Positions 10,846-63,274 are shown, counted from the stretch's first letter. The stretch: DNA of 64,000 nt from an uncultured Chloroflexia bacterium (GCA_963778155.1 CAVZTK010000006.1:791962-855961), one strand, 5' to 3'. Notes: a model not told the origin generated them from the letters alone. Translations and numbers: made by a program.

Positions 10846-12243
10846 ATGCGCACGCTCATCACCAACGGGACGATCGTCACCGCCGACGGGAGCTACGGCG
10901 CCGACGTCCTGATCGACGGCGAGACCATCGCCCTGCTCGGCCGCGACCTGGCCGCGGGTGGCGTGGAGGCCGACGAGACCATCGACGCGTCGGGCAGGTA
11001 CGTGATCCCCGGCGGCATCGACGTCCACACCCACATGGAGCTGCCGTTCGGCGGCACGTTCGCCAAGGACACCTTCGAGACGGGGACGCGCGCGGCAGCG
11101 TTCGGCGGGACGACGTCGATCGTCGACTTCGCGGTCCAGTCGAAGGGCCAGACGCTGCGCCAGGGCCTCGACGCCTGGCACGCCAAGGCCGAGGGCAACG
11201 CCGTCACCGACTACGGCTTCCACATGATCATGAGCGACGTCAACGACGGCACGCTGGCCGAGATGGATGGCCTGGTCGCCGAGGGCGTGCCCGACTTCAA
11301 GCTGTTCACCGCGTACCCGGGCGTCTTCTACAGCGACGACGGCGCGATCTTCCGGGCGATGCAGCAGACCGCCAGGAACGGCGGGCTGATCATGATGCAC
11401 GCCGAGAACGGGATGGCCATCGACGTCGTCGCGGCCCAGACCATCGAGGCCGGCATGACCGACCCGATCGGCCATGGGATCGCCCGCAAGCCGATCTTCG
11501 AAGGCGAGGCGACCAACCGGGTGATCCGCCTGGCGGAGGCGGCCGAGGCACCGGTCTACATCGTCCACCTCTCGGCGCGGGACGCGCTCGAGACCGTGCG
11601 CGACGCCCGCGATCGCGGCGGCCGGGTGTTCGCGGAGACCTGCCCGCAGTACCTGTTCCTGTCGCTCGATGACCTGGGCCACGGGTTCGAGGGCGCCAAG
11701 TTCGTGTGCTCGCCACCGTTGCGCACGAAGGACCACTGGGACGAGCTGTGGGCGGGGCTGGTCAAGGACGACCTGCAGGTCGTCTCGACCGACCACTGCC
11801 CGTTCGACTTCCACGGCCAGAAGGAGCTCGGCGAGGGCGACTTCCGCAAGATCCCGAACGGTCTTCCCGGCGTCGAGGACCGGCTCGACCTGCTCCACGA
11901 CGGCGGTGTCGTGGCCGGCCGGATCACGAAGGAGCGCTGGGTGGAGCTCGCGTCGACGGCGCCCGCGAAGCTGTTCGGGATGTATCCGCAGAAGGGCGCC
12001 ATCGCGATCGGCTCCGACGCCGACCTGGTGATCTACGACCCGAACCGCTCGCACACGATCTCGGCAGCGACCCATCACATGGACGTCGACTATTCGTGCT
12101 ACGAGGGTCGGGCCGTCCGGGGCGGCAGCGACATCGTCTTCTCGCGCGGCTCGGTGGTCGTGCGCGACGGGCAGTTCACCGGGCGCAAGGGCGCCGGACG
12201 GTTCCTCAAGCGCGCTCCGGCCGATTTCGCCCGGATGGCCTGA
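10846..12243 (+). CDS. hydA: Dihydropyrimidinase (D-hydantoinase)
   Basis: Intact 465 aa with GGIDVHTHMELPFGGT metal ligands, the FKLFTAYPG carboxylated-Lys region, IMMHAENG, VYIVHLS and VVSTDHCPF. Confidence 0.92.
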   Translation: MRTLITNGTIVTADGSYGADVLIDGETIALLGRDLAAGGVEADETIDASGRYVIPGGIDVHTHMELPFGGTFAKDTFETGTRAAAFGGTTSIVDFAVQSKGQTLRQGLDAWHAKAEGNAVTDYGFHMIMSDVNDGTLAEMDGLVAEGVPDFKLFTAYPGVFYSDDGAIFRAMQQTARNGGLIMMHAENGMAIDVVAAQTIEAGMTDPIGHGIARKPIFEGEATNRVIRLAEAAEAPVYIVHLSARDALETVRDARDRGGRVFAETCPQYLFLSLDDLGHGFEGAKFVCSPPLRTKDHWDELWAGLVKDDLQVVSTDHCPFDFHGQKELGEGDFRKIPNGLPGVEDRLDLLHDGGVVAGRITKERWVELASTAPAKLFGMYPQKGAIAIGSDADLVIYDPNRSHTISAATHHMDVDYSCYEGRAVRGGSDIVFSRGSVVVRDGQFTGRKGAGRFLKRAPADFARMA

Positions 12244-15500: not shown

Positions 15501-16009
15501 TGTTCTGGACCGATCTGAACCCGGCCGCGGGCGGAGCGATCCGGGTCGCGACCTTGTCCGATGGCCCTCCCGGTCCGACGACGACGAGCTGGCTGGTCGT
15601 CGACTACGGGGCGGTCAAGAACTTCAGCAACGCCATCACCCATACCGGCGAGCTCTGGTTCCAACTCGCTTCGGGGGCAGCCGGTACCGATGCCTCGAGT
15701 GAGCAGACCACCATGACCTTCGGCGCCGCCAACGCGTCCGCCGGCGATCCTGGTATCCCGGGTGCGTTGAAGGTCAACTGGGGTGCCGAGAACCGCGACG
15801 GCACCAGTGGCAAGAACTTTGCATCCGCCCCGGCCGACAACACCGAATGGTCGGTCGACACGTCGCCGCCCGCCCCCGGCGGATCAGCGACTCTGCACTT
15901 CGATGTCTCCGCCAACAAGGCCGGCACGTACAGCTCGGTGGCCTCGATGACCTCCGATGTCACGCCCGGCACGACCCAGGTCGTCAAGACGATCACGGTC
16001 AGACCCTGA
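12563..16009 (+). pseudogene. Secreted subtilisin-family (S8) serine peptidase with PA-like insert and long C-terminal extension, one frame break
   Basis: GGAGGAGGAG SD, then GTG at 12563 and the signal VRRTPVALATLCLLLGQTIFAGAVSG. The catalytic residues are Asp (FGDIDTGVWPEHP), His (HGTHTTTTAAG) and Ser (GTSMSSPHSAG). Track ORFs 12322..15327 and 15122..16009 join as LSALGVTP|LTGIGDDTMTNFG after removing one base in the CCCCGG at 15302-15307. Confidence 0.85.
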
Positions 16010-16032
16010 CCGTCGTCCCGATCGGGAATCAC

Positions 16033-16060
16033 GAAGGGCCGCCCGCAAGGGCGGCCCTTC
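16033..16060. terminator. GC-rich hairpin between convergent genes (bidirectional terminator candidate)
   Basis: GAAGGGCCGCCC-GCAA-GGGCGGCCCTTC forms a perfect 12-bp stem with a GNRA-like loop. It lies between the protease stop (16009) and the mmsA stop (16116). Confidence 0.6.
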
Positions 16061-16115
16061 CGTTCGTCCGCGTGCCTGTGTCTGCCGGCCGGATGCCGGT
16101 CGCCAGGCCCCGGGC

Positions 16116-17654
16116 TTACCGTGTGCGCGGGAACCCCAGGTCGATCTTGGAGGTCCCCGGATCCGGCCAGCGCGAGGTCACGATCTTGGCCCGCGTGTAG
16201 AACTGGACGCCCTCGGGGCCGTACATGTGCAGGTCGCCGAACAGCGAGTTCTTCCAGCCACCGAAGCTGTAATACGCGACCGGGACCGGGATCGGCACGT
16301 TGATGCCGACCATCCCGGCGTTGACCTCGAACTGGAACTGCCGGGCGGCACCACCGTCGCGTGTGAAGATGGCCGTCCCGTTGCCGTACGGGTTGTCGTT
16401 CACGAGGCGAACCGCCTCGTCGTAGGTCTTGACCCGCATCACGGTCAGGACCGGGCCGAAGATCTCGTCGCGATACGCGTCCATCGCCGGCGTGACGTGG
16501 TCGATCAGCGACACGCCGAGGAAGAAGCCGTCCGACTCGTCGTAGAGCGGGTGGTCGCGGCCGTCGGTCACGAGCGTGGCTCCCTGGGCCGGGCCACTGT
16601 CGAGGTACGAGGCGACCTTGTCGCGGTGCTGCTTCGTGACGAGTGGCCCCATCTCGGACGACGGGTCGCTGCCGGGTCCGACCGTGATCTTGGGCAGCCG
16701 TGCCTTGATCGCCTCGACCAGCGGGTCGGCCACGTCGCCGACCGCCACGACCGTCGCGATCGCCATGCACCGCTCGCCGGCCGAGCCGTAGCCGGCCGAC
16801 ACGGCGGCGTCGGCGGCCATGTCGATGTCGGCGTCGGGCAGCACGATCATGTGGTTCTTCGCGCCGCCGAGCGCCTGTACGCGCTTGCCGGCCTTGGTCC
16901 CGGTCTCGTAGATGTAGCGGGCGATCGGCGTCGAGCCCACGAACGAGACGGCCTCGATGTCCGGGTGCTCGAGGATCGCGTCGACCGCCACCTTGTCGCC
17001 GTGGACGACGTTGAAGACGCCATCCGGGACGCCCGCGTCGCGCAGGAGCTCGGCCAGGAAGTTGGCCGCCGACGGATCCTTCTCCGAGGGCTTGAGCACG
17101 AACGTGTTGCCCGCCGCGATCGCCGTCGCGAACATCCACATCGGCACCATCGCCGGGAAGTTGAACGGGGTGATGCCGGCGACCACGCCGAGCGGCTGGC
17201 GGATCTGGTAGACGTCCACGCCGCCCGAGACCTGCTCGGAGAAGCCGCCCTTGAGCAGGCTCGGGATGCCGCACGCGAACTCGAGGTTCTCGAGGCCGCG
17301 GGCGATCTCGCCGAGCGCGTCCGACGGGACCTTGCCGTGCTCCGCGGTCAGCAGCGCGGCGATCTCCGTACGATGCGCCTCGACGCCGTTCCGGATGCGG
17401 AACATGACGTCGGTCCGCTTCGAGATCGACGTCGCCCGCCAGGCCGGGAAGGCTGCCTTCGCCGCCGCGACCGCCGCATCGACCTCGGCGACCGAGGCGA
17501 AGTCCACGTGCCTGGTGAGCTGGCCCGTCGCCGGATCGAACACGGGGCCTTCGCGCCCCGACGTCCCGGCGACCAGATGACCGCCGATCCAGTGGCTGAC
17601 GCGAGCCGGCGCCGGGCTCTCGGTTCGGGCGTTGGGTTCTGCGACCTGTGTCAT
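16116..17654 (-). CDS. mmsA: CoA-acylating methylmalonate/malonate-semialdehyde dehydrogenase
   Basis: Intact 512 aa with FNFPAMVPMWMF, VLKPSEKDP, the catalytic Cys in SAGERCMA, and PIPVPVAYYSFGGWKNSLFGD, which is typical of the MmsA subfamily. Confidence 0.92.
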   Translation of the reverse strand: MTQVAEPNARTESPAPARVSHWIGGHLVAGTSGREGPVFDPATGQLTRHVDFASVAEVDAAVAAAKAAFPAWRATSISKRTDVMFRIRNGVEAHRTEIAALLTAEHGKVPSDALGEIARGLENLEFACGIPSLLKGGFSEQVSGGVDVYQIRQPLGVVAGITPFNFPAMVPMWMFATAIAAGNTFVLKPSEKDPSAANFLAELLRDAGVPDGVFNVVHGDKVAVDAILEHPDIEAVSFVGSTPIARYIYETGTKAGKRVQALGGAKNHMIVLPDADIDMAADAAVSAGYGSAGERCMAIATVVAVGDVADPLVEAIKARLPKITVGPGSDPSSEMGPLVTKQHRDKVASYLDSGPAQGATLVTDGRDHPLYDESDGFFLGVSLIDHVTPAMDAYRDEIFGPVLTVMRVKTYDEAVRLVNDNPYGNGTAIFTRDGGAARQFQFEVNAGMVGINVPIPVPVAYYSFGGWKNSLFGDLHMYGPEGVQFYTRAKIVTSRWPDPGTSKIDLGFPRTR

Positions 17655-17721
17655 CGGATCGACCTCTGCGTGGAGGTCTCACGATACTCGCTCACCGCGA
17701 GGGCCGGGGTCGGATGGCTGG

Positions 17722-18666
17722 TCAATACCGCACGCGCGACTCCGGATCGGGCCATGCGACATCGACGCGCGGGTCGGCCGTGTCGGCCGGATCGACGGGG
17801 TCGGCATCGGGCGCCCGGCCGTGGTTGCGGATCGTCAGGACCACGACCGCAACGGCGCAGCCGATGGCGATCCCCACCGAAATGAGCCCCGCCACATTCA
17901 TGCCCCCGGCAACGACCGGATCGCGCCAGGTGGTCGACACGAGCGCCCGCGCCACGGCCCACAGTCCGATCGCGACATAGAACGCTCGGCCGTCACGGCC
18001 CCGGAAGGCACCGGCCATCAGGGCCACGGTCAGGACGGCCAGGATCGAGAGCGTGGCCGCGCCCTCGAGCGCCTGCGACGGGACCGACGGGAGCGCCGGC
18101 AGGAGGGACCCCCACGGTCCGGGTCCGAGATACGCTGTGGCCGGGTCGGTGACGCTCGGCACACCCTGTCCTGCGCCGGCCAGCACCATCGTGAGCTTGC
18201 CGGCACCAAGCGCGAACAGGACCGGTGCCGCCGCCAGGTGGAGCCAGCGACCCAGTGGCGCTCCGAGGAGGCTGGCCACGTAGCAGCCGGTCACGAGGCC
18301 GCCGACGACCGCGAGGCCGAGGTCCATCCCGCCGATCGACGGGTCGAGCAGGCGCTCGGGGGCGGAGCCGTAGTAGGTCGAGTGGACGAGGAAGTAGCCG
18401 AGCCGCCCACCGATCACGGCGCCGGGCACGATCCCGACCGCGACGAAGGCCACGTCGTCGGGCCGGACCCCGCCGGCACGAGCCAGGATGCCGGCCAGCA
18501 CGAGGGACGCGACGATCACGGCGACCAGTGCGATGACCGCCCATCGCACGGTCAGGTCGCCCGGCAGATGGGCGAACGGGTCGAACTGGAAGAACACGAC
18601 GGCGATCGGCACGGTGGCGTGAGTGTATCGAAGCGCCCCGCTCGACCCTGCCGGTCCGGGAACCAC
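17722..18666 (-). CDS. Divergent prolipoprotein diacylglyceryl transferase (Lgt) family paralog
   Basis: Polytopic membrane protein with the Lgt-like motif GAVIGGRLGYFLVH. It lacks a canonical HP..LYE block (it has PSQALEGAAT instead). The true start may be the GTG at 18612. Confidence 0.6.
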   Translation of the reverse strand: MVPGPAGSSGALRYTHATVPIAVVFFQFDPFAHLPGDLTVRWAVIALVAVIVASLVLAGILARAGGVRPDDVAFVAVGIVPGAVIGGRLGYFLVHSTYYGSAPERLLDPSIGGMDLGLAVVGGLVTGCYVASLLGAPLGRWLHLAAAPVLFALGAGKLTMVLAGAGQGVPSVTDPATAYLGPGPWGSLLPALPSVPSQALEGAATLSILAVLTVALMAGAFRGRDGRAFYVAIGLWAVARALVSTTWRDPVVAGGMNVAGLISVGIAIGCAVAVVVLTIRNHGRAPDADPVDPADTADPRVDVAWPDPESRVRY

Positions 18667-18737
18667 CCGGCGCGACCGCGCGTCGAACGTCCGGCTGGCC
18701 CGACATCGCCGGCCTCACGCACGAGGACATCGATCAC

Positions 18738-19172
18738 ATGGCCTACCATCGCCCGGACATGCTCGTCCGCATCGCCCTGCTGGCCGCCGCCGTCGTCGTG
18801 GCGGGCTGCTCGTCCGCGGCGGCGCCAAGCGCTGCGGCACCGTCGCCGACACCGGCCGGTGCAGCCTTCTCCGCCGCTCCCGTGGGAGACGCGTCCATGA
18901 GTCCAGGCACGATCGACCTGTCCGCCTCGGTGATCGATCCCGTGGTCGCCGACATCGCCAAGACCGCCGGCGTCCCGGTCGACCAGGTCGAGGTCATCTC
19001 GGCCCAGTCCGTCACGTTTCCAGACGGGAGCCTGGGCTGCCCGCAACCGGGCCTGGCCTACACGCAGATCGTCGTCGACGGCTACCAGATCGTGGCCAAG
19101 GCCGGCGGCACCGTGTACGACTACCGCGGGACCGGGTCGACGTTCAAGCGCTGCACGACGGGCGCCAGCTAG
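18738..19172 (+). CDS. Putative lipoprotein
   Basis: Signal peptide with the lipobox LLAAAVVVAGC followed by an Ala/Pro/Ser linker. It is transcribed divergently from the Lgt-like gene. Confidence 0.7.
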   Translation: MAYHRPDMLVRIALLAAAVVVAGCSSAAAPSAAAPSPTPAGAAFSAAPVGDASMSPGTIDLSASVIDPVVADIAKTAGVPVDQVEVISAQSVTFPDGSLGCPQPGLAYTQIVVDGYQIVAKAGGTVYDYRGTGSTFKRCTTGAS

Positions 19173-19317
19173 GCAGGCACGTCGTTCGACGGTGCCCTGG
19201 TGGACGCTCGTCGATGGTCAGTCGCCGGCCGTCCAGGCAGGATCGGTCCATCGAAGAGTCGTGCGCCCCACGCGTTCGCCGGGTGCGCGGCCAGCCCGAA
19301 TGACAAGGAGCCCGACC

Positions 19318-19485
19318 GTGTCGCTCACGCCAGGCCTGACCCTGCTGGGTCTGCTGCTCGTCCTCGTCGCCATCCCGCTCGGCCTCGCGTTCGCGCCGCT
19401 CGTGATCGGCGCGATCGTCCTCACGTATGCCGCCCGGCGGGCGCATGAGGATCTGGCCGAGAGGCCGGCTGCCGTCTCCCTGTAG
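19318..19485 (+). CDS. Small hypothetical membrane protein (55 aa)
   Basis: AAGGAG lies 7 nt before the GTG at 19318. Hydrophobic core LTLLGLLLVLVAIPLGLAFAPLVIGAIVL. Confidence 0.3.
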   Translation: MSLTPGLTLLGLLLVLVAIPLGLAFAPLVIGAIVLTYAARRAHEDLAERPAAVSL

Positions 19486-19503
19486 GGCGCCCGGCCGCCG
19501 GCG

Positions 19504-22042
<2,539 letters not shown>

Positions 22043-22295: not shown

Positions 22296-22404
22296 GAGCT
22301 CTTATCAAGAGTGGCAGAGGGACCGGCCCGTTGAAGCCACGACAACCTACCGACGAATCGGCAAGGTGCCAAGCCCGGGCAGGTCATCCTGCACGATAAG
22401 GGAA
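22296..22404 (+). promoter_or_regulatory. SAM-I (S-box) riboswitch
   Basis: GAGCTCTTATCAAGAGTGGCAGAGGGACCGGCCCGTTGAAGCCACGACAACC...GGCAAGGTGCCAAGCCCGGGCAGG...CCTGCACGATAAGGG carries the conserved S-box blocks: the P1 pair CTTATC/GATAAG, GAGGGA, GGCCC, TGAAGCC, CAACC and GGTGCCAA. It ends 88 nt before the ThrC-like start. Confidence 0.85.
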
Positions 22405-22491
22405 CCTCCCTTCGGAGCCCCCCTATCCGACCAGACGGTCGCCCGTACCCGGTCCCGAGGCGCACTTTCCCCAGGCCTCCCGGAGACGACC

Positions 22492-23791
22492 ATGGCGATC
22501 GAGATCCTTCCGTCAGCCACCCACGCCGACCGCATCGTCGGGCTCCGCTGTCGCAATTGCGGCGCGAGCCAGCCGATCGGCATGTCGTATGTCTGTCCGG
22601 CCTGTTTCGGTCCGCTCGACGTCGCCTATGACTACGCCGTCATCGGGGCGACCCTGACCCGCGAGGCGATCGCGTCGCGCGCACCGGGGATCTGGCGCTA
22701 CGCCGAGCTCCTGCCGGTGGACAAGCCGCCGACGCGCGGGCTGCCGGTCGGGTCGACGCCGCTGCTCGCGGCCGATCGTCTGGCGCCGGTCCTCGGGCTC
22801 GATCGGCTGTGGCTGAAGGACGACACGCGGAACCCGTCGCTGTCGTTCAAGGACCGCGCCGTGGCCGTCGCCGCAGCGCGTGCGGTCGAGTTCGGGGTCG
22901 AGGCGCTGGCCTGCGCATCGACCGGGAACCTGGCGGGCGCAACAGCTGCCGCTGCGGCCGCGCTGGGGCTGCCGGCCTACGTGTTCATCCCGGCCGACCT
23001 CGAGCCGGCCAAGGTCGATCACGCGCTGGCCTACGGCGCGACAGTGGTCCCCATCGAGGGCACGTACGACGACGTCAACCGGTTGTGCCTCGAGGTCGCG
23101 GACGAGACGGGCTGGGGCTTCGTCAACATCAACCTGCGGCCGTTCTACGCCGAGGGCTCCAAGACCCTCGCCTACGAGATCGCCGAGTCGCTCGGCTGGC
23201 GGTCGCCCGATGTCGTCGTCGCGCCGGTGGCATCCGGTGCGATGTTCACCCACGTCGCGCGCGGGTTCGAGGAGCTCGTCGAGCTCGGATTGATCGCGAG
23301 CCGGCCGATCCGGTTCGTCGGCGGCCAGGCCGCCGGCTGCGCACCGATCGCGACCGCGTGGGCGACCGGCAGCGACGTCATCGTCCCGGTCCGCGAACCC
23401 GACACGATCGTGCGCTCGCTCGCCATCGGAAGCCCGGCCGACGGCCGCGATTCGGCGGCCCTGGCGAACGCGTCGGGCGGCTCGATCGAGGCGATCGAGG
23501 ACGCCGTGACGGCGGCTTCGATCCGCGACGTGGCTCGGCTCGAAGGGATCTACCCGGAGACGGCTGGTGGCGTGACTCTCGCAGCGGCCGCCGCCGCCCG
23601 ACGTCGCGGCGTCATCCGGCCCGGCGACGAGGTCGTGGCACTCCTCACCGGGAACGGGCTCAAGACACCCGACGCGCGGACGCTGGGCGGGGGCGACGGT
23701 GTCGCGCGGCCGGGTCAGCCCGGTCTCGCGCCCGTCGATCCGCCCGAGCCTTGCCGCATTCGAGCGCTGGCTGGACGGCGGCGCGTCGTGA
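22492..23791 (+). pseudogene. Threonine-synthase-like PLP enzyme with N-terminal zinc ribbon (MetM-like, predicted homocysteine-forming), one frame break near the C-terminus
   Basis: GGAG SD and ATG at 22492. CRNCG...CPACFG zinc ribbon. PLP lysine in NPSLSFKDRAV. ASTGNLAGA and LLTGNGLKTPDA are also present. Removing one C from the CCC at 23731-23733 gives ...GLAPSIRPSLAAFERWLDGGAS, whose TGA overlaps the next GTG (GTGA). Confidence 0.85.
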
Positions 23792-24061
23792 GCACGGTCC
23801 GCATCCCGCCGACCCTGCGTGTGGCCACCGGCGGCGCCAAGCAGGTCCAGGTCCCGGGCGGGACCGTTCGGGAGGTCGTCACCGGCCTCGTCGCGCTGCA
23901 TCCCGGACTCGAGGCCCAGCTCATCGCGCCCGATGGCGACCTCAACCGGTTCGTCAACGCGTTCCTCAACGACACGGACGTGCGCCACCTCGAGGACCTC
24001 GATACGCCCGTCGGGCGACGGCGACACCCTGGTCCTGCTCCCGGCGATGGCCGGCGGCTGA
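23788..24061 (+). pseudogene. MoaD/ThiS-type ubiquitin-like sulfur-carrier protein (MetO-like), one frame break
   Basis: VSTVRIPPTLRVATGGAKQVQVPGGTVREVVTGLVALHPGLEAQL...FLNDTDVRHLEDLDTPVG. Removing one G from the GGG at 24013-24015 continues the protein as DGDTLVLLPAMAGG-stop, the diagnostic C-terminal Gly-Gly. Confidence 0.8.
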
Positions 24062-24094
24062 AGCGGGCTCCACCGGGCGGCGCGGTGCGCCGGC

Positions 24095-25269
24095 TCAGGC
24101 TTCGTCGAGGGCGCGTGCGAGGTCCGCGATGAGGTCGCCCGGGTCCTCGATGCCGACCGACAGGCGGACGAGCGCCGCCGACACCTCGAGCGGCGACCCG
24201 GCCACGGACATGTGGGTCATCGCCGCCGGCAGCTCGATGAGCGACTCGACCCCACCCAGCGACTCGGCCAGGGTGAACAGCCGCGTCCCCTCGGCGACGG
24301 CGACCGCCCGCTCCGCGGCGCTGCGGCCGTGCCGTCCGCCATCGGTCGGCAGGAACGACACCATCCCGCCCATCGCCCGGGTAGTGGACCTCGGCCACGT
24401 CCGGCCGGCCGTCGAGGAAGTCGGACACCATCACGGCGTTCGCGCCGTGCCGTTCCATCCGCAGGTGGAGCGTGCGCAGCCCGCGCAGGACGAGGAAGCA
24501 GTCGAGCGGTCCCGGCACGGCGCCCATCGCGTTCTGCAGGAACCGCAGCCGCTCGGCGATCGCCGGATCCGAGGTGACGGCCACGCCCAGGACGGTGTCG
24601 GAGTGGCCGGCGAGGTACTTCGTCGCGGAGTGGAAGACGATGTCGGCCCCCTCGCGCAGTGGCCGCTGGAGAGCGGGAGAAGCGAACGTGTTGTCGACGA
24701 CGACCAGCGGACGGCGGCCGCCTTCCTCGGCGCGGCGGGCGACGGTGGCCACGGTCGCCCCGATGTCGACGACCTTGAGATGCGGGTTCGACGGTGTCTC
24801 GAACCAGACGAGCCGGGTCCGCTCTGTGAGCGCCTCCCAGAGCGCGTCCTGGCCGCCGGCGAGATCGATGTAGCGGGCGTCGACGCCGGCGCCCCGCCGG
24901 ACCCGTTCGAGGTAGCGATACGTGCCGCCGTACACATCGTCGCCGACCACGATCTCGTCACCCGGCGCCGCCAGCTCGGCGATGGCCGCCGTGACCGCCG
25001 ACCCCGACGCGAACGCGATCCCGTGCTCCGCCGCCTTCGAGCGCAGCGACGGCCCGTTCGAGCCGTTCGCGGGTCGGGTTCTGCGAGCGAGCGTATTCGT
25101 ACCCGCGTCGCGGCCGACCGACGCCGTCCTGGGCGAACGTCGAGGTCTGGTAGATCGGTGGCGAGACCGCGCCGGTCAGCTCGTCCGGCTCGGCGCCTGC
25201 GTGGACGGCCAGCGTGTCGAAGGCGTACGGCTCGGTGACGTCGGGGCGCGGGTCGGGCATCAAGGCCAT
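24095..25269 (-). pseudogene. Cystathionine gamma-lyase/gamma-synthase family (Cys/Met-metabolism PLP enzyme), frame-disrupted
   Basis: The N-terminus reads FDTLAVHAGAEPDELTGAVSPPIYQTSTF...NPTRERLE. The middle reads EHGIAFASGSAVTAAI...DDVYGGTYRYL...VVDNTFASP...HSATKYLAGHSD (PLP Lys). The C-terminus reads GGMVSF...[19 protein letters not shown]...VRLSVGIED. Breaks lie near 25027-25036 and 24361-24385. At the second junction the usual roughly 17 residues between YPG and GGMVSF appear to be missing. Confidence 0.85.
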
Positions 25270-25282
25270 GGTAGCGGGCCGG

Positions 25283-25846
25283 TCAGGCGGCGGGCGGCCA
25301 CCCATCGAGATGGAAGACGAGCTCCTCGCCGTCGATGTCGTCGATCTGGACGCCGACCTGCTCGAAGCCGAGACCGCGGACGATCGCCAGCGAGCCGACG
25401 TTGTCGGGCGAGACCGACGCTCGGAAGCGGTCGACGCCCTGCGCGTGCGCCCAATCGAACAGCGCGCGGACGACCTCGGTCGCGACACCTTGGCGGCGGT
25501 ACTCGGGCTGGACCTTGTAGCCGACCTCGACGCGACCATCGGCGTCGGGCGGAGCATGGAACCCGCACGAGCCGATCGCCCGTCGCGTGCCGTCGTCTTC
25601 GGTCAGAACGATCGCCCGGCCGAGCCACGGCTGAGCGGCCGGGTCCTCGGTCAGGTCCGCGATGCGGTACTGGAGGAAGTTGTCGAGGTCGTCCGGAAAG
25701 CTCTCCGGGACCGTGGCTCCGAGCTCGGCCTCCGCGGCGACCAGGTGGCGGGCGACCAGGTGGCGCATGAACGGCAGCGACATCGACTCGAGCTCGAAGC
25801 GTCGCGTCCGGATGGGCGGCACGGACATGTCCTCAGCCTCGGCCAT
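25283..25846 (-). CDS. GNAT family N-acetyltransferase
   Basis: Intact 187 aa. Acetyl-CoA-binding motif EYRRQGVATEVVRALFDWA and C-terminal NVGSLAIVRGLGFEQVG. The start may instead be the internal Met at 25828. Confidence 0.85.
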   Translation of the reverse strand: MAEAEDMSVPPIRTRRFELESMSLPFMRHLVARHLVAAEAELGATVPESFPDDLDNFLQYRIADLTEDPAAQPWLGRAIVLTEDDGTRRAIGSCGFHAPPDADGRVEVGYKVQPEYRRQGVATEVVRALFDWAHAQGVDRFRASVSPDNVGSLAIVRGLGFEQVGVQIDDIDGEELVFHLDGWPPAA

Positions 25847-45733: not shown

Positions 45734-46833
45734 TCAGCCTCCGGTCGGCGCCGCGTTCGCGACCAGGTCGGCGGATTCGGCGGCGGGAGGGGTCGGATCG
45801 ACGATCTCGACCGGCCCCGTGTCAAGGACGCGCAGGACCGTCCGCCAGACCGCCGCGACGACGCCGAGGAACGGGACCACGAGGAACATCCCGATGACCC
45901 CGGCGACCTCGTTCCCCGCCGGGATGGCCACCAGGACGACGGCCGGGTGGATGCTCACGACCCGGCTGTAGACGATCGGCGCCACGATGTTGCCCTGGAC
46001 GATGTTGAACACGATGGTGAAGATCGCCATGATCGCGATGTCCTGCGGCGATCCCGGTCGCGACGGTCACGAGGAACGCCAGGGCGGTCGTGAAGAGCGA
46101 GCCGATGTACGGGATGAACCCGCCGAAGACCGCCAGGACCGCGAGCGGCAGGGCGAACGGGATGCCGAGGATGACCATGATCAGGAACTGGGTGGCAGCC
46201 CCGAAGATCGAGATGGCCCCGGTCCCCAGCATGTAGCCGCCGAGCACATCGAACGCCCGCTGGCCGGCCACCGCCACATGCGATCGTCGGCCCGGCTCGA
46301 CACGGCGCGAGGAACGCCTGCCAGAAGGCGCCGCCGTCGCGCATGAAGTAGAACGTCAGGAGCGTCGCCAGGAGCAGGATCACGGCGATCCCCGCCAGCG
46401 TCGACAGCACCCCCGCGATGGTGACCAGGACGCCGGTCCCGAACGTCTGGACGAGCGTGACCAGGATCCCGGCCTGGCCGCCCGTGCTGCCGTCGGCTGA
46501 GCTGGAGCCGGCGATCGCGCTGTTGATCATGTCGCTGATCGGTGGCGCGAGCGAGACCAGCGTCAGTCCGACGATGACGATGATCCCGACGGCCGCCCCG
46601 AGCGTCGCGCCGATGGCGGCTCGATCGTGGCTCCAGCCGCGCCGCTCGAGTGTTTCGGCGAGAGGCGCGAGGGTGGCTGCCAGCACGACCCCGAGGACCA
46701 CCGGGATGACGACGATCGGCACCTGCACGACGGCGTCGATGAAGACCCCGAGCAGGCCGATCGAGACGAGCAGACGCCAGCTCCACTGGCCGAGCCGATC
46801 GAGCCAGACCGGCACCATCGGGTTGCTCGACAT
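45734..46833 (-). pseudogene. AI-2E (PerM/YhhT) family transporter, downstream paralog, two frame breaks
   Basis: ATG at 46833 (MSSNPMVPVWLDRLGQWSWRLLVSIGLLG...). It continues ...FYFMRDGGAFWQAFLA|RVEPGRRSHVAVAGQRAFDVLGGYMLG...GGFIPYIGSLFTTALAFLVTVATG|SPQDIAIMAIFTIVFNIVQGNIVAPIVY. Breaks lie at 46304-46305 and 46053-46055. Confidence 0.8.
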
Positions 46834-47909
46834 CGCCTGCGTCTCAGGTCCGAGACCCAGGACGGACACGAGGGCACCGGCGATGGCGAGCGCGAAGGCG
46901 ACGACCGGGATGGCCACGAACAGGCCGATGATGCCGGCCAGGGCCGCGCCGGCCGGCAGCGCGATGAGCACGAGCGCCGGATGGATGTGGACGGTCCGGT
47001 GGTACACGATCGGCGCAAGGAACTTGCCCTGGATCACGTTCAGGATGGTGATCAGGACGAGCAGCACGATGGCCGCGGTCTGACCGGCGCTGGACAGCGT
47101 CGCGAACAGCAGGATGATCGTCGTGACCAGGCCGCCGATGTACGGGATGAACCGGCCGAAGAAGACGATGACGCCGAGCGCCGGAGCATTGGGGACCCCG
47201 AGGAGGAACAGGAACAGCGCCTCGAAGAACCCGTCGACGGCGGCGATCACGGCGGTGCCGCGCAGGTAGCCACCGACCCGCTCGAGGGCGACGTCGCCGG
47301 CGGTCTCGATCGCTCTCGCGCCGCCAGCTCTTGGCCGAGGACATCACCCAGCCCCACGCCTTGTCCCCGTCCATCATGAAGAAGAACGTCAGGAAGGTGG
47401 CCAGGATCGCCACGGTCGCGACCGTGGCGACGGTGCTGGCCAGCCCGGAGATCTCGCTCGGAGATCCAGTCCTGGAGCCCCTTCGTCGCGTGGTCGATGG
47501 CGGCGCCGACCTCGGGCGGGAGGTCCAGGCTCGCGAGCACGTCCTTGAGGCGCGCGACGCCGCCGGTGATGCCATCGATGACGCTGGTGATGGCCGGCAG
47601 GAAGGCGATCACGATGATCACGATCGTGGCGATGATCACGGCCATGGCCCCGACGAAGACCGCCGCCGCGGCCTTGATCCTCGACCAGCCGCGATCGCGC
47701 AGAGCCAGCACGAATGGCGCGAAGGTCGCGGCCACGATGGCCGCCACCAGGACCGACGCCGTCACCGTCCCGAGAAGGACGGCGATGTAGATGAGCACGA
47801 GACCCAGCGCGATCGTGGCGAGCAGCCGCCACCCGACGGCGGCGAGTCGCTGCAGCCAGCCGGGGACGAGCCCGTTGTCCCCGGGCATCGCCGGTGAGAT
47901 CTCGGTCAT
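46834..47909 (-). pseudogene. AI-2E (PerM/YhhT) family transporter, upstream paralog, two frame breaks and no stop before the next gene
   Basis: ATG at 47909 (MTEISPAMPGDNGLVPGWLQRLAAVGWRLLATIALG...). The middle reads ILATFLTFFFMMDGDKAWGWV. The C-terminal part reads GYLRGTAVIAAVDGFFEAL...FFGRFIPYIGGLV...NVIQGKFLAPIVYHR. Breaks lie near 47447-47462 and 47305-47325. As given, the frame runs straight into the ATG at 46833. Confidence 0.75.
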
Positions 47910-59006: not shown

Positions 59007-60164
59007 TCAGACGCGACCCTTCGGCACGGTGTGCCAGTACGTCTTGTTGAAGACGATCTTGCCCAGGTGCCACAGGTGGTTCGGCTTTGGCGGGCGTGGC
59101 GGGTGGTCGTAGTCGAACTGGAGGAGAGTCCCCTTCCCGTCGCCGATCTCGAAGAAGCACATCACCCGGCCGTGGTAGTCGACATGCTTGCCGGCCGGGG
59201 CGCGACCCTCGACCGCGGCCGCGATCCGCTCGGCCACGACCGGAGCCTCGAAGTGCGCGGTCGAGCCCGCCTTCGAGAGAGGCAGGTCCGTCGCGTCGCC
59301 GAGCGCGTAGATGTCGTCGTATCCGGCGACGCGAAGCGTCCGTCGGTCGGTCGGGAGCCAGCCGCCGGGCGCCGGAGCGAGACCGGAGTCCATCAGGAAC
59401 TGCTGCCCCTTGTGCGGCGGCACCAGGATGAGGAGGTCGTAGCCGAGCTCCTCGCCTTCGAGGCTGAGGACGACCTTCCGCTCCGGGTCGATGGCCTCGA
59501 CGTTGAAGAAGGTGTGGAGCTCGATGTGCTTTGCCTCGAGGATCGGGGTGGCCATCTCGGACACGCTCTCGATCATGAATGCGCGGCCGATCGGCGAGCA
59601 GAAGTCGATCGAGGTGCGGCCGCGCATGTCGCGGTCGCGGAGCTCAGCCTCGAGCAGGAACGCGACCTCGAGCGGGGCCGGCGGGCACTTGTAGGGCATC
59701 CCCGCGATGCCGATGAGGATCCGACCGCCGTCGAACCGGTCGAGCGCGGCGCGCAGCCGGCCGGCCGCTTCGGCGGAGTAGAAGTGGTGGGCTTCGGCGT
59801 CGAAGTGCTCGATCAATTCGGGCACGATCCGCGACCCCGTCGCCAGCACCAGCTGGTCGTAGCCAAGGGGCAGCCCATCCGTGAGCGTGACGACCCGAGC
59901 CGTGGTGTCGACCCGCTCGACCTCGCCGACGATCAGGGTGACCCGCTTGTCGAGCAGCCCGCGCTCCGGACGATGCAGGTTGGCCGCCCGTTCGTGGCCC
60001 ATGGCGATGTACATGAAGCCCGGCTGGTAGGTGTGCTCGCCGCTGGCATCGACGACGATGATCCCGACCTCGCCACGGTCGATCCGACGGCGCAGCTTCT
60101 TGACGAGGAGGTTGGCGGTGAGGGTGCCTCCGACACCGCCGCCGAGGATGAGGATCCGTTGCAT
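59007..60164 (-). CDS. Sulfide:quinone-oxidoreductase-like FAD-dependent oxidoreductase
   Basis: Intact 385 aa. FAD motif ILILGGGVGGT. GMPYKCPPAPLE is the Cys-containing motif also seen in SQR-type enzymes. YALGDATDLPLSKAGSTAHFEA is the second FAD-proximal block; here it carries Ala where, as I recall, many SQRs carry Cys. Confidence 0.75.
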   Translation of the reverse strand: MQRILILGGGVGGTLTANLLVKKLRRRIDRGEVGIIVVDASGEHTYQPGFMYIAMGHERAANLHRPERGLLDKRVTLIVGEVERVDTTARVVTLTDGLPLGYDQLVLATGSRIVPELIEHFDAEAHHFYSAEAAGRLRAALDRFDGGRILIGIAGMPYKCPPAPLEVAFLLEAELRDRDMRGRTSIDFCSPIGRAFMIESVSEMATPILEAKHIELHTFFNVEAIDPERKVVLSLEGEELGYDLLILVPPHKGQQFLMDSGLAPAPGGWLPTDRRTLRVAGYDDIYALGDATDLPLSKAGSTAHFEAPVVAERIAAAVEGRAPAGKHVDYHGRVMCFFEIGDGKGTLLQFDYDHPPRPPKPNHLWHLGKIVFNKTYWHTVPKGRV

Positions 60165-60170
60165 GGCCGG

Positions 60171-60416
60171 CTACCGTCGCTTCTCGACGACGATCTCGTC
60201 GTAGCCGTCGCGCGCGTCGAGGGCGACGAGTCGGTGGCCCGCCTTCTCGACCCATTTCGGGATGTCGGTCCTGGAGCCCCGGTCCGAGGAATAGACAGCG
60301 ATGATGTCCCCGACCCGGCCTTCGCGAATGGCGCGGATGAGCTCCATCAAGGGGCCCGGGCAGAAGCTGCCTCGGGCGTCGACGACGCGGGTGATGGCGA
60401 TGGCGGTATCGGTCAT
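60171..60416 (-). CDS. TusA/SirA-family sulfurtransferase (copy 2)
   Basis: ATG at 60416, 81 aa. VDARGSFCPGPLMEL carries the CPxP active-site motif. Confidence 0.85.
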   Translation of the reverse strand: MTDTAIAITRVVDARGSFCPGPLMELIRAIREGRVGDIIAVYSSDRGSRTDIPKWVEKAGHRLVALDARDGYDEIVVEKRR

Positions 60417-60451
60417 GGCGGTCACGCCCTTCCTGGGGTCGGCTGTTTCGT

Positions 60452-61060
60452 CTAGATGAACAGCGGGACCGAGTTCGTCGTCATGAGCTCGATGACGGTC
60501 GCGGCTCCCACCGGCTCGCCCATGCCCTCGATCATGTCCTCGGGCTTGAGGCCGAACATGTCCATCGTCATCTGGCACGGCATGAACTCGACGCCCATCG
60601 CCTGGGCGATCTCGAGCAGCTCCTTGGGGCTGGACACGCCGTACTGCTTGGCGAGCTTGCGCATCATCCAGGGACCCATGCCGAAGAAGTCCATCTTCGA
60701 GAGGTGCCGGTGACTGATGCCCGGACGTTGCATCGTCGACATCATCTTCTGCATCCAGTTCTCGCCGGTGATCCGCTTCGAATCCCTGACGAAGACCGGG
60801 AGACCCCAGAACGTCACGAAGACCCGAGTCTTGACACCCATCGCGGCGCTCGTCGAGGCGAGGATCATCGTGGCCCAGACCTTCTCGAGGTCGCCGCTGT
60901 AGTCGATGATGAGGAAGTCCTTCGTCGCGACTGCCCCGTCATCCGCCGGAGCCGGGACGGGTTCGGGGGTGGCGGTCGGGTCGCTCGCGTCGGGCCAGCC
61001 TTCGACGGCAGCGATCGCCTCGGCAAGTGGATCGAGGGTAGGCACTGTGCCGGTGGTCAT
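60452..61060 (-). CDS. DsrE/DsrF/DrsH-like family protein with 45-aa Pro/Ala-rich N-extension (copy 2)
   Basis: Intact 202 aa. FLIIDYSGDLEKVWATMILASTSAAMGVKTRVFVTFWG and the conserved Cys in VEFMPCQMTMDMFG. Confidence 0.75.
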   Translation of the reverse strand: MTTGTVPTLDPLAEAIAAVEGWPDASDPTATPEPVPAPADDGAVATKDFLIIDYSGDLEKVWATMILASTSAAMGVKTRVFVTFWGLPVFVRDSKRITGENWMQKMMSTMQRPGISHRHLSKMDFFGMGPWMMRKLAKQYGVSSPKELLEIAQAMGVEFMPCQMTMDMFGLKPEDMIEGMGEPVGAATVIELMTTNSVPLFI

Positions 61061-61067
61061 GGCGGCC

Positions 61068-61304
61068 TCACTTCCTGCGGATGACGAAGCGGTACATCGC
61101 GCCGTCGGAGGTCTGCTCGATCAGCTCGTTGCCGGTCACGCGACACCACGCCGCAACGTCCTTGATCGAACCCACATCCGTCGCCACGAGCTCGACGACG
61201 GCTCCGGACGGAAGGGCTTTGCACGCCTGGGCGGTCTTCACGATGGGCATCGGACACGACAATCCGCGCGCATCGACGGTCTGGCTGATCTCGACGACCG
61301 GCAT
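61068..61304 (-). CDS. TusA/SirA-family sulfurtransferase (copy 1)
   Basis: AAAGGAG SD and ATG at 61304, 78 aa. VDARGLSCPMPIVKT carries the CPxP motif. Confidence 0.85.
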   Translation of the reverse strand: MPVVEISQTVDARGLSCPMPIVKTAQACKALPSGAVVELVATDVGSIKDVAAWCRVTGNELIEQTSDGAMYRFVIRRK

Positions 61305-61327
61305 GGTCGGGCTCCTTTCGTTCCTGG

Positions 61328-61741
61328 TCAGATGAAGACGACCTGCCCCTCGCCGGCGTTGAGGTAGAACGCAGTCACGCCCTCCACCCCATCGACCAAC
61401 GGGTCGAGATCGCTCGATTCGAGATGGAGAAGGTCCATCGACAGCGAGCACGCCTGGATGTCGACCGACCCGAGATCCTTCGCCTGACGCATGGTCTCGG
61501 ACCATGGCGCCTGACCGGCGCGAGCGAGCGCGGCGACCGCTGCCTTGCCCTCGGGACCGGCCTCCGGTGCGAGCCCGTGGTCGAGGGCGATGCGGTCTGC
61601 CCTGAACGCATCGAGCGCCCAGTACTGCAGGAAGATGTTGACGGGCTTGCCGAGCGCGGCAGCGCCGGCGGCGAGGACCGCGGCGGCCTGGAGCTTGTCG
61701 TCGGTGCCGGAGAAGAGGACGAGGTTCAGCGGTTCGTCCAT
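61328..61741 (-). CDS. DsrE/DsrF/DrsH-like family protein (copy 1)
   Basis: ATG at 61741, 137 aa. LNLVLFSGTDDKLQAAAVLAAGAAALGKPVNIFLQYWAL and the conserved Cys in DIQACSLSMDLL. Confidence 0.75.
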   Translation of the reverse strand: MDEPLNLVLFSGTDDKLQAAAVLAAGAAALGKPVNIFLQYWALDAFRADRIALDHGLAPEAGPEGKAAVAALARAGQAPWSETMRQAKDLGSVDIQACSLSMDLLHLESSDLDPLVDGVEGVTAFYLNAGEGQVVFI

Positions 61742-62005
61742 CGGGTCACCTCGCGTGCCAGTCGGCGGGTCATGGCCGAAGCATCGGTCCACCCACATCT
61801 GCGCATCAGTGCCGACGGTCACCGACTCGGGGGCCGATCCGCCCCCGACTCGCCGGCCGCGTCGGAGTGCCCAGGGGACGGCGATCCGGCCCGTGCGTCT
61901 CGTGACATTCGGCACATGGTCGGGGTGGCTCGACGGTGGCAGGATGGCTTCCACGGTGGACGTCGGTGGGGACGCCCGGCGCCCACCGCGAACCCCTTTC
62001 CTCCC

Positions 62006-63274
62006 TCAGTCGAGATGCAGCGCGCGTACCTCGGCCGCCAGTGCGTCCCGCACGTCCGGGTGGGCGATCCGGATCAGCTCCGCCGCCCGCTCCCGAAGGC
62101 TCATGCCGAACAGTTCGGCGACTCCCCACTCGGTGACGACCGTGCGCACGTGCGCGCGCGTGGTCACGACACCCGCACCCTCCCGCAGCGAGGCGACGAT
62201 CCGCGACGAGCCGTCTCGCGCAGTGGAGGGGAGAGCGATGATGGCGCGCCCCTCTTCGGCCAGGCCGGCTCCCCGGATGAAGTCCATCTGGCCGCCGACT
62301 CCGCTGTACAGCCGATGCCCGATCGAGTCGGCCACCACCTGCCCGGACAGGTCGACCTCGATCGCCGAGTTGATAGCGACCATCCGGCTGAACGAGCGGA
62401 TGACATGCGTGTCGTTGGTGAAGTCGACCGGTCGCATCTCGACCATCGGGTTGTCGTCCACGAAGTCGTACAGCCGCTTGCTTCCCAGCAGGAAGGCTGT
62501 CACCAGCTTGCCCCGGTTGCGCTCCTTGCGGGCACCGGTGACGACTCCGGCCTCGACCAGGTCGACGATCGAGTCGGTGAACATCTCGGTGTGCACGCCG
62601 AGGTCGCGCTTGTCGCGGAGGGCGAGTGCCGTCGCCGCCGGGATCGCGCCGATGCCAAGCTGGAGGGTCGCCCCGTCAGGGACCAGCTCGGCGACATGCT
62701 CGCCGATCCGTCGCTCGATCTCGCCGAACGTCCCGACCGGGCTCTCGTACGGTGGGACATCGCATTCGACGGCGAGGTCGATCTGCGAGACGTGGATGAA
62801 GCTGTCGCCGAGCGTTCGCGGCATGGCCGCGTTGAACTGGACGATGACCATGCGTGCGGCGCGGATGGCCGCGTGCATGGCCTCGACCGAGGTCCCGAGC
62901 GAGCAGAACCCGTGTCCGTCGGGCGGGGTCGCATTCACGAACACCGCGTCGAGCGGCAGACGGCCGCTCTCGAACAGGCGCGGGACATCGGACAGAAAGG
63001 TCGGCACGTAGTCCGCCCGGCCCTCGGCGATGGCCTGGCGTGCGTTCGGACCGATGAACAGCGCCCGGTGCCGGAAATGCGGCGCCATGTCGGGCGCCAG
63101 GTGCGGACCGGGCCCCTCGCAATGGAGGTGGACGACGCTGACGTCCGACAGGTCGTCCGCCCGCGCGACGAGCGCGTCGAGCAGGACCGACGGCGTGGCC
63201 GCGGCACACTGCAGGTAGAGTTGCTGACCTGAGGCGATCCCGGAGACGGCCTCGGCGGCCGTGACGATGCGCAT
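62006..63274 (-). CDS. Acetyl-CoA hydrolase/transferase family protein (4-hydroxybutyrate CoA-transferase-like)
   Basis: Intact 422 aa with LQLGIGAIPAA, GVHTEMFTD, INSAIEVDLSGQV and YSGVGGQMDFIRGA. Confidence 0.9.
   Translation of the reverse strand: MRIVTAAEAVSGIASGQQLYLQCAAATPSVLLDALVARADDLSDVSVVHLHCEGPGPHLAPDMAPHFRHRALFIGPNARQAIAEGRADYVPTFLSDVPRLFESGRLPLDAVFVNATPPDGHGFCSLGTSVEAMHAAIRAARMVIVQFNAAMPRTLGDSFIHVSQIDLAVECDVPPYESPVGTFGEIERRIGEHVAELVPDGATLQLGIGAIPAATALALRDKRDLGVHTEMFTDSIVDLVEAGVVTGARKERNRGKLVTAFLLGSKRLYDFVDDNPMVEMRPVDFTNDTHVIRSFSRMVAINSAIEVDLSGQVVADSIGHRLYSGVGGQMDFIRGAGLAEEGRAIIALPSTARDGSSRIVASLREGAGVVTTRAHVRTVVTEWGVAELFGMSLRERAAELIRIAHPDVRDALAAEVRALHLD

Follow-up and report, generated by a model that had tools for sequence, protein, structure and literature searches.

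A compact cassette of five genes lies on the minus strand of the 64,000-nt stretch of DNA analysed here (hereafter the window; CAVZTK010000006.1:791962-855961, assembly GCA_963778155.1), which comes from an uncultured Chloroflexia bacterium. The cassette encodes two DsrE-like and two TusA-like sulfur carriers, followed by a flavoprotein related to sulfide:quinone oxidoreductase (SQR). Its sequence suggests that it is probably an operon for sulfide oxidation and sulfane-sulfur handling, in which the persulfide product of a cytoplasm-facing, type III-like SQR would be caught by dedicated carriers, with ArsR-type control in relatives. Persulfide production and trafficking is the best reading because the SQR cysteines are intact, the cysteines of the carriers are invariant and the cassette is strongly conserved. 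The original prediction of a persulfide-producing and persulfide-trafficking system thus stands as regards an SQR with both cysteines, four predicted cytoplasmic carriers and a conserved cassette, while its views on the regulator and on a duplication of the carrier genes had to be revised, as described below.

Positions are counted from the first letter of the window. The first gene, DsrEa (61328..61741), encodes a DrsE_2-family sulfur carrier of 137 aa with the candidate active-site Cys98 in IQACSLSMD. It is followed by TusA1 (61068..61304), a TusA-family carrier of 78 aa with Cys17 in SCPMP, and by DsrEb (60452..61060), a DrsE_2-family carrier of 202 aa with Cys162 in MPCQMTMD; these two form what we call the accessory pair. 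TusA2 (60171..60416; TusA family, 81 aa, Cys19 in FCPGP) lies immediately upstream of the SQR gene and is its core partner, and the type III-like SQR flavoprotein (59007..60164, 385 aa) is the last of the five. The intergenic gaps are 23, 7, 35 and 6 nt. In gene order, the Pfam scores are DrsE_2 54, TusA 79, DrsE_2 137 and TusA 69 bits (cut-offs 25 bits for DrsE_2, PF13686, which covers DsrE2/3/4/5-like proteins, and 28.6 bits for TusA, PF01206), and then Pyr_redox_2 with a weak FCSD_central match. Hydropathy analysis predicted no transmembrane segment in any of the five proteins. The gene order, strand and 6-35 nt gaps described in the original prediction agree with these coordinates exactly, and the five motifs named there (IQACSLSMD, CPMP, MPCQMTMD, CPGP and KCPPAP) were all found, with cysteines that are invariant in 75-80 relatives.

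According to its sequence and its structural model, the flavoprotein is an SQR-superfamily enzyme. The motif GGGVGG of the Rossmann fold that binds flavin adenine dinucleotide (FAD) occupies residues 8-13, with G8, G10, G12 and G13 invariant among 51 homologues, and a C-terminal helix spans residues 363-379. The chain begins straight at the Rossmann motif, so that there is no signal peptide. In the PDB sequence search, human type II SQOR ranked first (1e-30), followed by FCSD (2e-22), the type V enzyme of A. ambivalens (5e-20) and type I enzymes (~1e-13), and type II NADH dehydrogenase (NDH-2) was only marginal. The AlphaFold2 model has a predicted local distance difference test (pLDDT) score of 92.6, and its Foldseek TM-scores are 0.88 to human SQOR, 0.84-0.86 to the SQRs of A. 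ferrooxidans and A. aeolicus, and 0.76 to NDH-2. The flavoprotein might instead be an NDH-2 or another protein with two dinucleotide-binding domains, to which the carrier genes are linked by coincidence, and the common Pyr_redox_2 fold and the TM-score of 0.76 with NDH-2 structures are what this explanation can call upon. However, SQR structures fit better (0.84-0.88), both catalytic cysteines are invariant, the hidden Markov model (HMM) match is to type III SQR, and the linkage with TusA and DsrE spans phyla. This explanation is effectively refuted; HMM, PDB sequence, fold and cysteine pair all bear out the predicted resemblance to SQR, and the enzyme does not fall in a non-sulfide clade such as NDH-2.

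The catalytic cysteines were mapped onto a solved structure by a HMMER alignment to human SQOR, in which PDB chain numbering plus 40 gives the human precursor numbering. Cys160 (KCPPAP) aligns with human Cys201 (chain Cys161, VKCAGAP), as expected from the earlier statement that the KCPPAP cysteine is kept, and Cys336 (VMCFFEIG) aligns with human Cys379 (chain Cys339, TSCPLVTG). No other cysteine is widely conserved in the family; these two are found in 78/96 and 70/96 full-length 50%-cluster representatives, respectively, and both are invariant across 51 diverse homologues and in 80/80 close relatives. A further cysteine, Cys189, is confined to the Limnocylindria clade. The original prediction had placed Ala at GDA(T), a site at which many SQRs were said to carry another redox cysteine. 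This was a mis-mapping: the GDC cysteine of human SQOR, which is equivalent to the GDA(T) position, differs from Cys379, and Ala291 is the family norm (49/96 representatives, 80/80 relatives). Since human C379 maps to Cys336 and not to the GDA(T) position, both catalytic cysteines are retained. An SQR short of one redox cysteine is thus ruled out by the human SQOR alignment, the 96 representatives and the 51 homologues.

Among the SQR types of Marcia et al. (2010), the flavoprotein appears closest to type III. The sole SQR-specific NCBIfam match was NF049943 (type III SQR, selenoprotein subtype), with 327 bits over the full length against a model cut-off of 525. The positions of Cys160 and Cys336 agree with Cys159/Cys339, quoted as the canonical catalytic pair of type III SQRs (PMC13047784). 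In addition, the relatives that share 40-44% identity come from archaea (Thermoplasmatota, Methanobacteriota and Asgard), in keeping with a type III membership drawn from both bacteria and archaea. Metagenomic homologues number thousands, many of them 80-97% identical.

The four carriers keep their active-site cysteines without exception: that of DsrEa is invariant in 75/75 relatives, of TusA1 in 76/76, of DsrEb in 77/77 and of TusA2 in 77/77. DsrEa matches PDB 2QS7, a DsrE2B-type protein of Sulfolobus, over its full length (E 8e-18); 2QS7 is regarded in the literature as a DsrE2B-type trimer. DsrEb covers the full PF13686 profile, and in the PDB it comes closest to 3PNX (5.5e-14) and 2QS7 (1.2e-12). 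The cysteines of both proteins align with those of 2QS7 and 3PNX. DsrEb also bears a Met-rich insertion (NWMQKM...GMGPWMMRKL) and a Pro/Ala-rich N-terminal extension that is not conserved. Both TusAs miss the E. coli-type TusA equivalog (NF001423, cut-off 78 bits), with 49.6 and 37.2 bits, and the DsrE2 equivalog (NF047629, cut-off 210 bits) is missed by DsrEb (74.3 bits) and DsrEa (27.1 bits). The Cys-X7-Cys motif of DsrE3A (PMC4175335) is present in neither ACSLSMDLLHLE nor PCQMTMDMFGLK, there being no second Cys at +8, and the DsrE3A structure 3MC3 gave a weak match to DsrEb and none to DsrEa. The assignment to DsrE2- or DsrE3-type clades that had been called for is thus answered in part: the DsrE2 equivalog and the DsrE3A motif are both missed, and the nearest proteins by PDB sequence are DsrE2B-type structures. 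The context that defines DsrE4, a gene adjoining SQR (PMC4175335), is found in the window and across clades, and both DsrEs fit DsrE4 of Liu et al. by their gene context; a profile search with seven DsrEa orthologues matched only unnamed or Chloroflexota 137-aa proteins.

These sequences also bear on the sulfur species that the cassette would handle. DsrE3A and TusA of Metallosphaera cuprina carry thiosulfonate and not persulfide (PMC4175335), so that the carriers here might transfer thiosulfonate (-S-SO3-), or the chemistry might run in the other direction, as a quinol-driven reduction of carrier-bound persulfide or polysulfide. The substrate specificity of type III is the least studied among the six SQR types (PMC10205796), and thiol-peroxidase-like genes (OsmC, AhpC/Redoxin) recur by the cassette in other clades. 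We consider such a function quite unlikely, as neither DsrE has the Cys-X7-Cys of DsrE3A, both are nearer to DsrE2B-type structures than to 3MC3, and the type III SQRs tested to date oxidise sulfide with quinone, as far as the works cited in PMC10205796 are described there.

The conservation of the cassette was surveyed among GTDB species genomes. The scan yielded 347 relatives, and the close-relative survey was made on the best 80 of them (76-93% identity), nearly all of which are Chloroflexota metagenome-assembled genomes labelled Candidatus Limnocylindria or Limnocylindrales. This places the window in a Candidatus Limnocylindria (Chloroflexota) genome and not in an actinobacterium. By tblastn, the order DsrEa-TusA1-DsrEb-TusA2-SQR is identical in ~75/80 loci, essentially all those with sufficient upstream DNA, with mean identities of 85, 74, 76, 80 and 81% for the five proteins, respectively. 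The arrangement is not due to chance, because the same order recurs across related loci; the neighbourhood survey thereby disposes of the possibility, raised beforehand, that the arrangement is conserved in no relative. Meanwhile, the flanking genes vary, and the downstream CN-hydrolase of the window is common to only two of the 80 loci and the coenzyme A (CoA) transferase to 14. Besides an ArsR-family gene, ORF clustering (ORF, open reading frame) found no neighbour in more than ~36% of the loci, the recurrent ones being a class III aminotransferase (29), a hemerythrin-domain protein (22), a 197-aa membrane protein (17) and the CoA transferase (14).

The hemerythrin-domain neighbours (11232-11789 in locus L005, and 21 other loci) are absent from the window; in relatives lacking the ArsR gene, such as L006, L022 and L038, the hemerythrin-domain gene lies upstream and is divergent. 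The CoA-transferase gene belongs to the acetyl-CoA hydrolase/transferase family and is located at 62006-63274 (-) in the window and at 7646-8917 in L081, with varying positions and orientations in the 14/80 loci. In the more distant clade A, it is on the same strand after SQR and a CBS-domain gene, and it has no evident sulfur connection.

One locus, L005, contains a second cluster (13278-19724) 2 kb downstream of the SQR cassette, which consists of ArsR, DrsE_2, DsrE (PF02635), TusA, MvhD/FlpD and two HdrA-like flavo-iron-sulfur proteins, its DrsE_2 protein being 59% identical to DsrEa. It is a candidate downstream acceptor system and occurs neither in the window nor within 10 kb of the cassette in the other 79 loci. 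Such an Hdr-like cluster with ArsR, DrsE_2, DsrE and TusA genes beside the cassette might indicate a dissimilatory, energy-yielding role, in which sulfane sulfur passes to a cytoplasmic Hdr-like, sHdr or rDsr complex encoded elsewhere and is oxidised to sulfite or sulfate, making the Limnocylindria lithoheterotrophic sulfide oxidisers; sHdr and rDsr systems are known recipients of sulfur from TusA/DsrE cascades (PMC11094781, PMC3397948). We regard this role as unlikely. The Hdr-like cluster adjoins the cassette in only 1/80 loci and is not present in the 64-kb window, no recognisable HdrB, HdrC or LbpA genes were found within the L005 stretch examined, and there are no Dsr or Sox genes among the scanned window ORFs.

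To relate the two DsrE/TusA pairs to those of more distant lineages, we used 11 contexts from other clades whose SQR homologues are 42-74% identical to that of the window. Clade A (L081; SQR 72%) has the five-gene order of the window, and behind it come a CBS-domain gene and a CoA transferase. Clade B (L082, L087 and L091; Actinomycetota-labelled or similar; SQR 51-54%) has the order DsrE (134-138 aa), TusA (80 aa), SQR, TusA (76-77 aa) and DsrE (171-181 aa). Clades C, D and F together with L092 (L083/84, L088, L090, L089 and L092; SQR ~48-53%) have only DsrE (138-140 aa), TusA (79-82 aa) and SQR, and in Thermoprotei (L085/86; SQR 42%) no carrier stands beside SQR. A core triad of DsrEa, TusA2 and SQR thus recurs in 10/11 contexts from more distant clades, and clades A, B, C, D and F all have a DsrEa orthologue directly before TusA-SQR.

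The bit scores separate the carriers by type. TusA2 scores 79-125 bits against the TusA immediately before SQR in every bacterial clade sampled, versus 42-48 bits against the TusA1 type, and TusA1 scores 95-101 bits against the TusA downstream of SQR in clade B, versus 42-64 bits against the upstream type. Similarly, DsrEa scores 92-199 bits against the short upstream DsrE, and DsrEb 178-193 bits against the long DsrE (172-182 aa) of clades A and B. Scores between carriers of different type are just 30-72 bits, and within the window DsrEa and DsrEb share 37 bits and TusA1 and TusA2 share 42 bits. A core triad and an accessory pair are distinguished because these scores give separate orthologous groups, and by this sequence comparison the DsrE/TusA pairs are two anciently diverged, distinct orthologous groups. 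A recent tandem duplication was rejected, since the paralogues share 37 and 42 bits whereas orthologues in other phyla share 95-199 bits, and the earlier description of a duplicated DsrE/TusA module is in this sense misleading. The accessory pair TusA1-DsrEb keeps its internal order and is placed between DsrEa and TusA2 in the lineage of the window and after SQR in clade B.

The distant triads have sulfur- and thiol-related neighbours at 3252-9931 in L092, 4053-5136 in L087, 2735-3208 in L090 and 8349-9459 in L082. OsmC or AhpC-type genes lie near the triad in these four loci, OsmC three times and once with an extra TusA, and an AhpC/Redoxin gene occurs together with a MauE/DoxX gene. L092 carries a cysteine-desulfurase-like gene right after SQR, an ArsR-rhodanese fusion and a Lactamase_B (persulfide-dioxygenase-like) gene, while in L088 a Lactamase_B-rhodanese fusion is located 6 kb from the cassette. 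L092 and clades B2, C and F also have ArsR-family genes near the cassette.

A sixth gene is conserved in the close relatives. In 60/73 loci (ORF clustering and tblastn), an ArsR/SmtB-family regulator is encoded on the same strand immediately upstream of DsrEa. BLASTN and MAFFT comparison of the window with its closest relatives, L001 and L002, showed collinear flanks from which ~347 nt of internal regulator sequence are gone. What is left is a deletion scar of 28 nt at 61746-61773 (-), which comprises the start codon and the last ~22 nt including the stop codon. The original prediction had reported no CstR/SqrR-type regulator nearby; this is correct for the window, because the ArsR-family gene was deleted here, and does not apply to the relatives, where that gene stands first in 60/73 loci.

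The regulator (8049-8423 in L001, and 54 other loci) reaches 89 bits with the general ArsR/SmtB model (cut-off 55), and its score of 61 bits with the BigR equivalog NF040642 falls short of the cut-off of 155. It has one invariant Cys (55/55; alignment position 83, in the C-terminal helix), a second Cys being present in only 8/55. BigR and SqrR, in contrast, have two sensing cysteines, and a single-Cys ArsR regulator may use a different sensing chemistry. An alignment of the 140 nt before the ArsR start in 54 relatives and the window revealed a conserved upstream element, which in relatives is a 7-2-7 inverted repeat (ATGCGCA-GA-TGCGCAT, perfect in L011) and is a candidate ArsR operator or promoter. 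In the window, the element is located at 61791-61814 (-) and reads CGGCACT followed by ATGCGCA-GA-TGTGGGT. The right arm TGCGCAT, which is >90% conserved in relatives, has thus become TGTGGGT, a degeneration that fits relaxed constraint following repressor loss. A search around the operon gave neither a sigma-70 consensus promoter nor an intrinsic terminator, which is uninformative at ~70% G+C.

The rest of the window offers little that could be joined to the cassette. Persulfide dioxygenase, rhodanese, Hdr, Dsr, Sox and TauE domains were absent from the 50 predicted ORFs scanned with Pfam over the 64 kb, a few short ORFs lying outside the scan, in line with the earlier remark that the usual partners (persulfide dioxygenase, rhodanese, Hdr, Dsr) are missing. 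Sulfur-related genes are found 33-37 kb from the cassette, namely those of a CBS-domain cystathionine-beta-synthase-like protein, a frameshifted Cys/Met enzyme dependent on pyridoxal phosphate (PLP; CGL-like) and a threonine-synthase-like/ThiS-MoaD-like protein, and SufB lies ~21 kb away. An S-adenosylmethionine (SAM) riboswitch (Rfam RF00162, 74.7 bits) at 22299-22402 (+) directly precedes the threonine-synthase-like PALP ORF at 22366-24132 (+), which continues into a ThiS/MoaD-like beta-grasp carrier, the MetO-like protein at ~23788. Riboswitch and ORF look like a SAM-regulated methionine-biosynthesis operon, possibly frameshift-fused. Among the 80 relatives, no MetO-like, CBS or CGL gene occurs within 10 kb of the cassette, and SufB does so in two.

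E. coli TusA serves biosynthetic thiolation, and the cassette might in the same way supply sulfide-derived sulfane sulfur to cofactor, tRNA or thiocarboxylate-carrier (MetO/ThiS-like) pathways. That the window encodes threonine-synthase-like and ThiS/MoaD-like, CBS, CGL-like and SufB proteins, and that a cysteine-desulfurase-like gene immediately follows SQR in L092, are points in its favour. However, the MetO-like gene is 35 kb off and has a SAM riboswitch of its own, in none of the 80 relatives does such a gene come within 10 kb of the cassette, SufB in two of them excepted, both TusAs score under the E. coli TusA equivalog cut-off, and the invariable partner is a respiratory-type SQR. A biosynthetic supply function is therefore highly improbable. 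The speculative link of the relay to the MetO-like carrier in the original prediction thus has no support, and on the strength of the 80-locus survey and the SAM riboswitch we reject a connection with the window's methionine and cysteine genes.

Several genes of the window are split or truncated (24095-25557 (-), 45955-47909, 758-1276, 6441-7154 and 8941-9321). The Cys/Met-metabolism PLP enzyme is spread over at least three frames and an AI-2E transporter over two ORFs, and an aminotransferase, a PLP decarboxylase and a CN-hydrolase are represented by C-terminal fragments. Either the genes are pseudogenes, or the assembly contains indel errors. Assembly indels would lower the trust placed in small features, yet they cannot explain the 347-nt ArsR deletion.

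The linkage of sqr, tusA and dsrE itself has already been published (PMC4175335, PMC10205796). In Methylacidiphilum fumariolicum SolV, a type III sqr-tusA-dsrE2 operon (MFUM_v2_0219-0221) was ~1.7-fold up in H2S-adapted cells (Schmitz et al. 2023, PMC10205796). As in the window, a type III-like SQR is co-transcribed with TusA and a DrsE_2-type DsrE, and H2S oxidation with electrons going to the respiratory chain was proposed. That operon has one TusA and one DsrE after sqr, whereas the window has two non-redundant pairs before SQR, the two being compared by description and not by sequence. In M. cuprina, tusA (Mcup_1722), sqr (1723) and dsrE4 (1724) are neighbours, and DsrE4 was defined as encoded downstream of SQR (Liu et al. 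2014, PMC4175335); a part in the detoxification of reactive sulfur species has been proposed for it (Tanabe et al. 2024, PMC11094781). There too a DsrE adjoins SQR with tusA adjacent, as DsrEa is the DsrE that always accompanies SQR here. M. cuprina differs in being an archaeal sulfur oxidiser with a single pair within a sulfur island that includes TQO, and the likeness of DsrE4 to DsrEa and DsrEb is one of gene context.

In Firmicutes, the Staphylococcus aureus cst operon and the Bacillus licheniformis yrk-sqr-pdo cluster, as outlined in PMC9918477 and references therein, combine SQR, TusA, DsrE, rhodanese and persulfide dioxygenase. To the extent that this source describes them, they share with the cassette SQR and TusA/DsrE-type sulfurtransferase modules, with a persulfide-sensing repressor and a role in sulfide and sulfane-sulfur detoxification, and they differ in a type II SQR, a rhodanese (CstA being a Rhd-TusA-DsrE fusion), the persulfide dioxygenase CstB, TauE and the CsoR-family CstR. 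In contrast, rhodanese, persulfide dioxygenase and TauE are not among the 50 scanned ORFs of the window, and the regulator of the relatives is of the ArsR family. The rhd-tusA-dsrE2 and TusA/DsrE3 cascades of Allochromatium vinosum and Hyphomicrobium denitrificans (PMC3397948, PMC11094781) are similar in the serial transfer of Cys-persulfide between TusA and DsrE trimers and in the use of several DsrE paralogues per relay. While the rDsr and sHdr relays end in co-encoded DsrC/DsrAB or LbpA/sHdr, the relay of the window co-encodes the initial SQR, and a terminal oxidiser is linked only in L005. In a literature search of incomplete coverage, no paper was found on the two-pair architecture or on the Limnocylindria cassette.

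The comparisons above directly establish the gene content, its conservation and orthology, the invariance of the cysteines, the fold and the regulator deletion; enzyme activity, membrane sidedness, the direction and order of sulfur transfer, the ligand of the regulator and the final acceptor are what we infer, as follows. The SQR, having no signal peptide, would sit on the cytoplasmic face of the membrane and, as a member of its family, would oxidise H2S at Cys160/Cys336 beside FAD, with electrons going to the quinone pool. Gene linkage and the invariant cysteines suggest that the enzyme-bound persulfide, rather than being set free as polysulfide, passes to the cytoplasmic carriers of the operon, which would hold it as protein Cys-persulfides. 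The core carriers would be TusA2 (CPGP) and DsrEa, which are found with SQR in nearly all sampled bacterial clades, and TusA1 (CPMP) and DsrEb, as a second, older and distinct pair, may extend or branch the relay toward an acceptor outside the operon. Relatives point to a persulfide dioxygenase with rhodanese, OsmC/AhpC-type thiol-dependent reductases or an Hdr-like complex as candidate acceptors. The ArsR-family regulator that opens the operon in most relatives is presumably a sulfane-sulfur-responsive autorepressor. With the regulator deleted and the putative operator decaying, expression in this genome is probably constitutive or read-through from the upstream CoA-transferase gene. The role would be sulfide and reactive-sulfur homeostasis, with some gain of respiratory electrons, in an aerobic soil heterotroph.

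Several points weigh against this interpretation. The type III assignment comes from one HMM match under its own cut-off and from literature numbering, not from a tree with references. The ligand of the regulator is a guess, because it is not a BigR/SqrR equivalog and has a single invariant Cys. A full detoxification route cannot be drawn from the locus, because persulfide dioxygenase, rhodanese and a sulfite exporter are lacking among the scanned ORFs of the window. Finally, a hand-off of sulfur from SQR to TusA/DsrE was demonstrated in no paper found within the incomplete coverage of our literature search.

A bolder proposal, which we offer only tentatively and with some doubt, is that type III SQRs are protein-persulfide synthases, whose physiological sulfane-sulfur acceptor would be the co-evolving TusA2/DsrEa, in place of small thiols, sulfite or free polysulfide. 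With TusA1/DsrEb added, Limnocylindria and some Actinomycetota-like lineages would then possess an ordered relay of four proteins, controlled by a new one-Cys ArsR-type sensor.

Candidatus Limnocylindria are Chloroflexota that are widespread in soil and freshwater and lack well-studied isolates. Should the proposed function of the cassette be correct, sulfide would be oxidised on the cytoplasmic side and the reactive product kept on dedicated proteins. The distinction between a core triad and an optional second pair provides a concrete, testable scheme for a linkage that earlier papers mentioned only briefly, and this genome, having lost the regulator naturally, provides a built-in comparison for studies of regulation. 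The cassette extends known sulfur-relay biology and introduces no new principle. Should type III SQRs prove to be persulfide synthases, this would supply the missing acceptor of the SQR type about which least is understood, and would describe how reactive sulfur is handled in the cytoplasm of abundant soil Chloroflexota.

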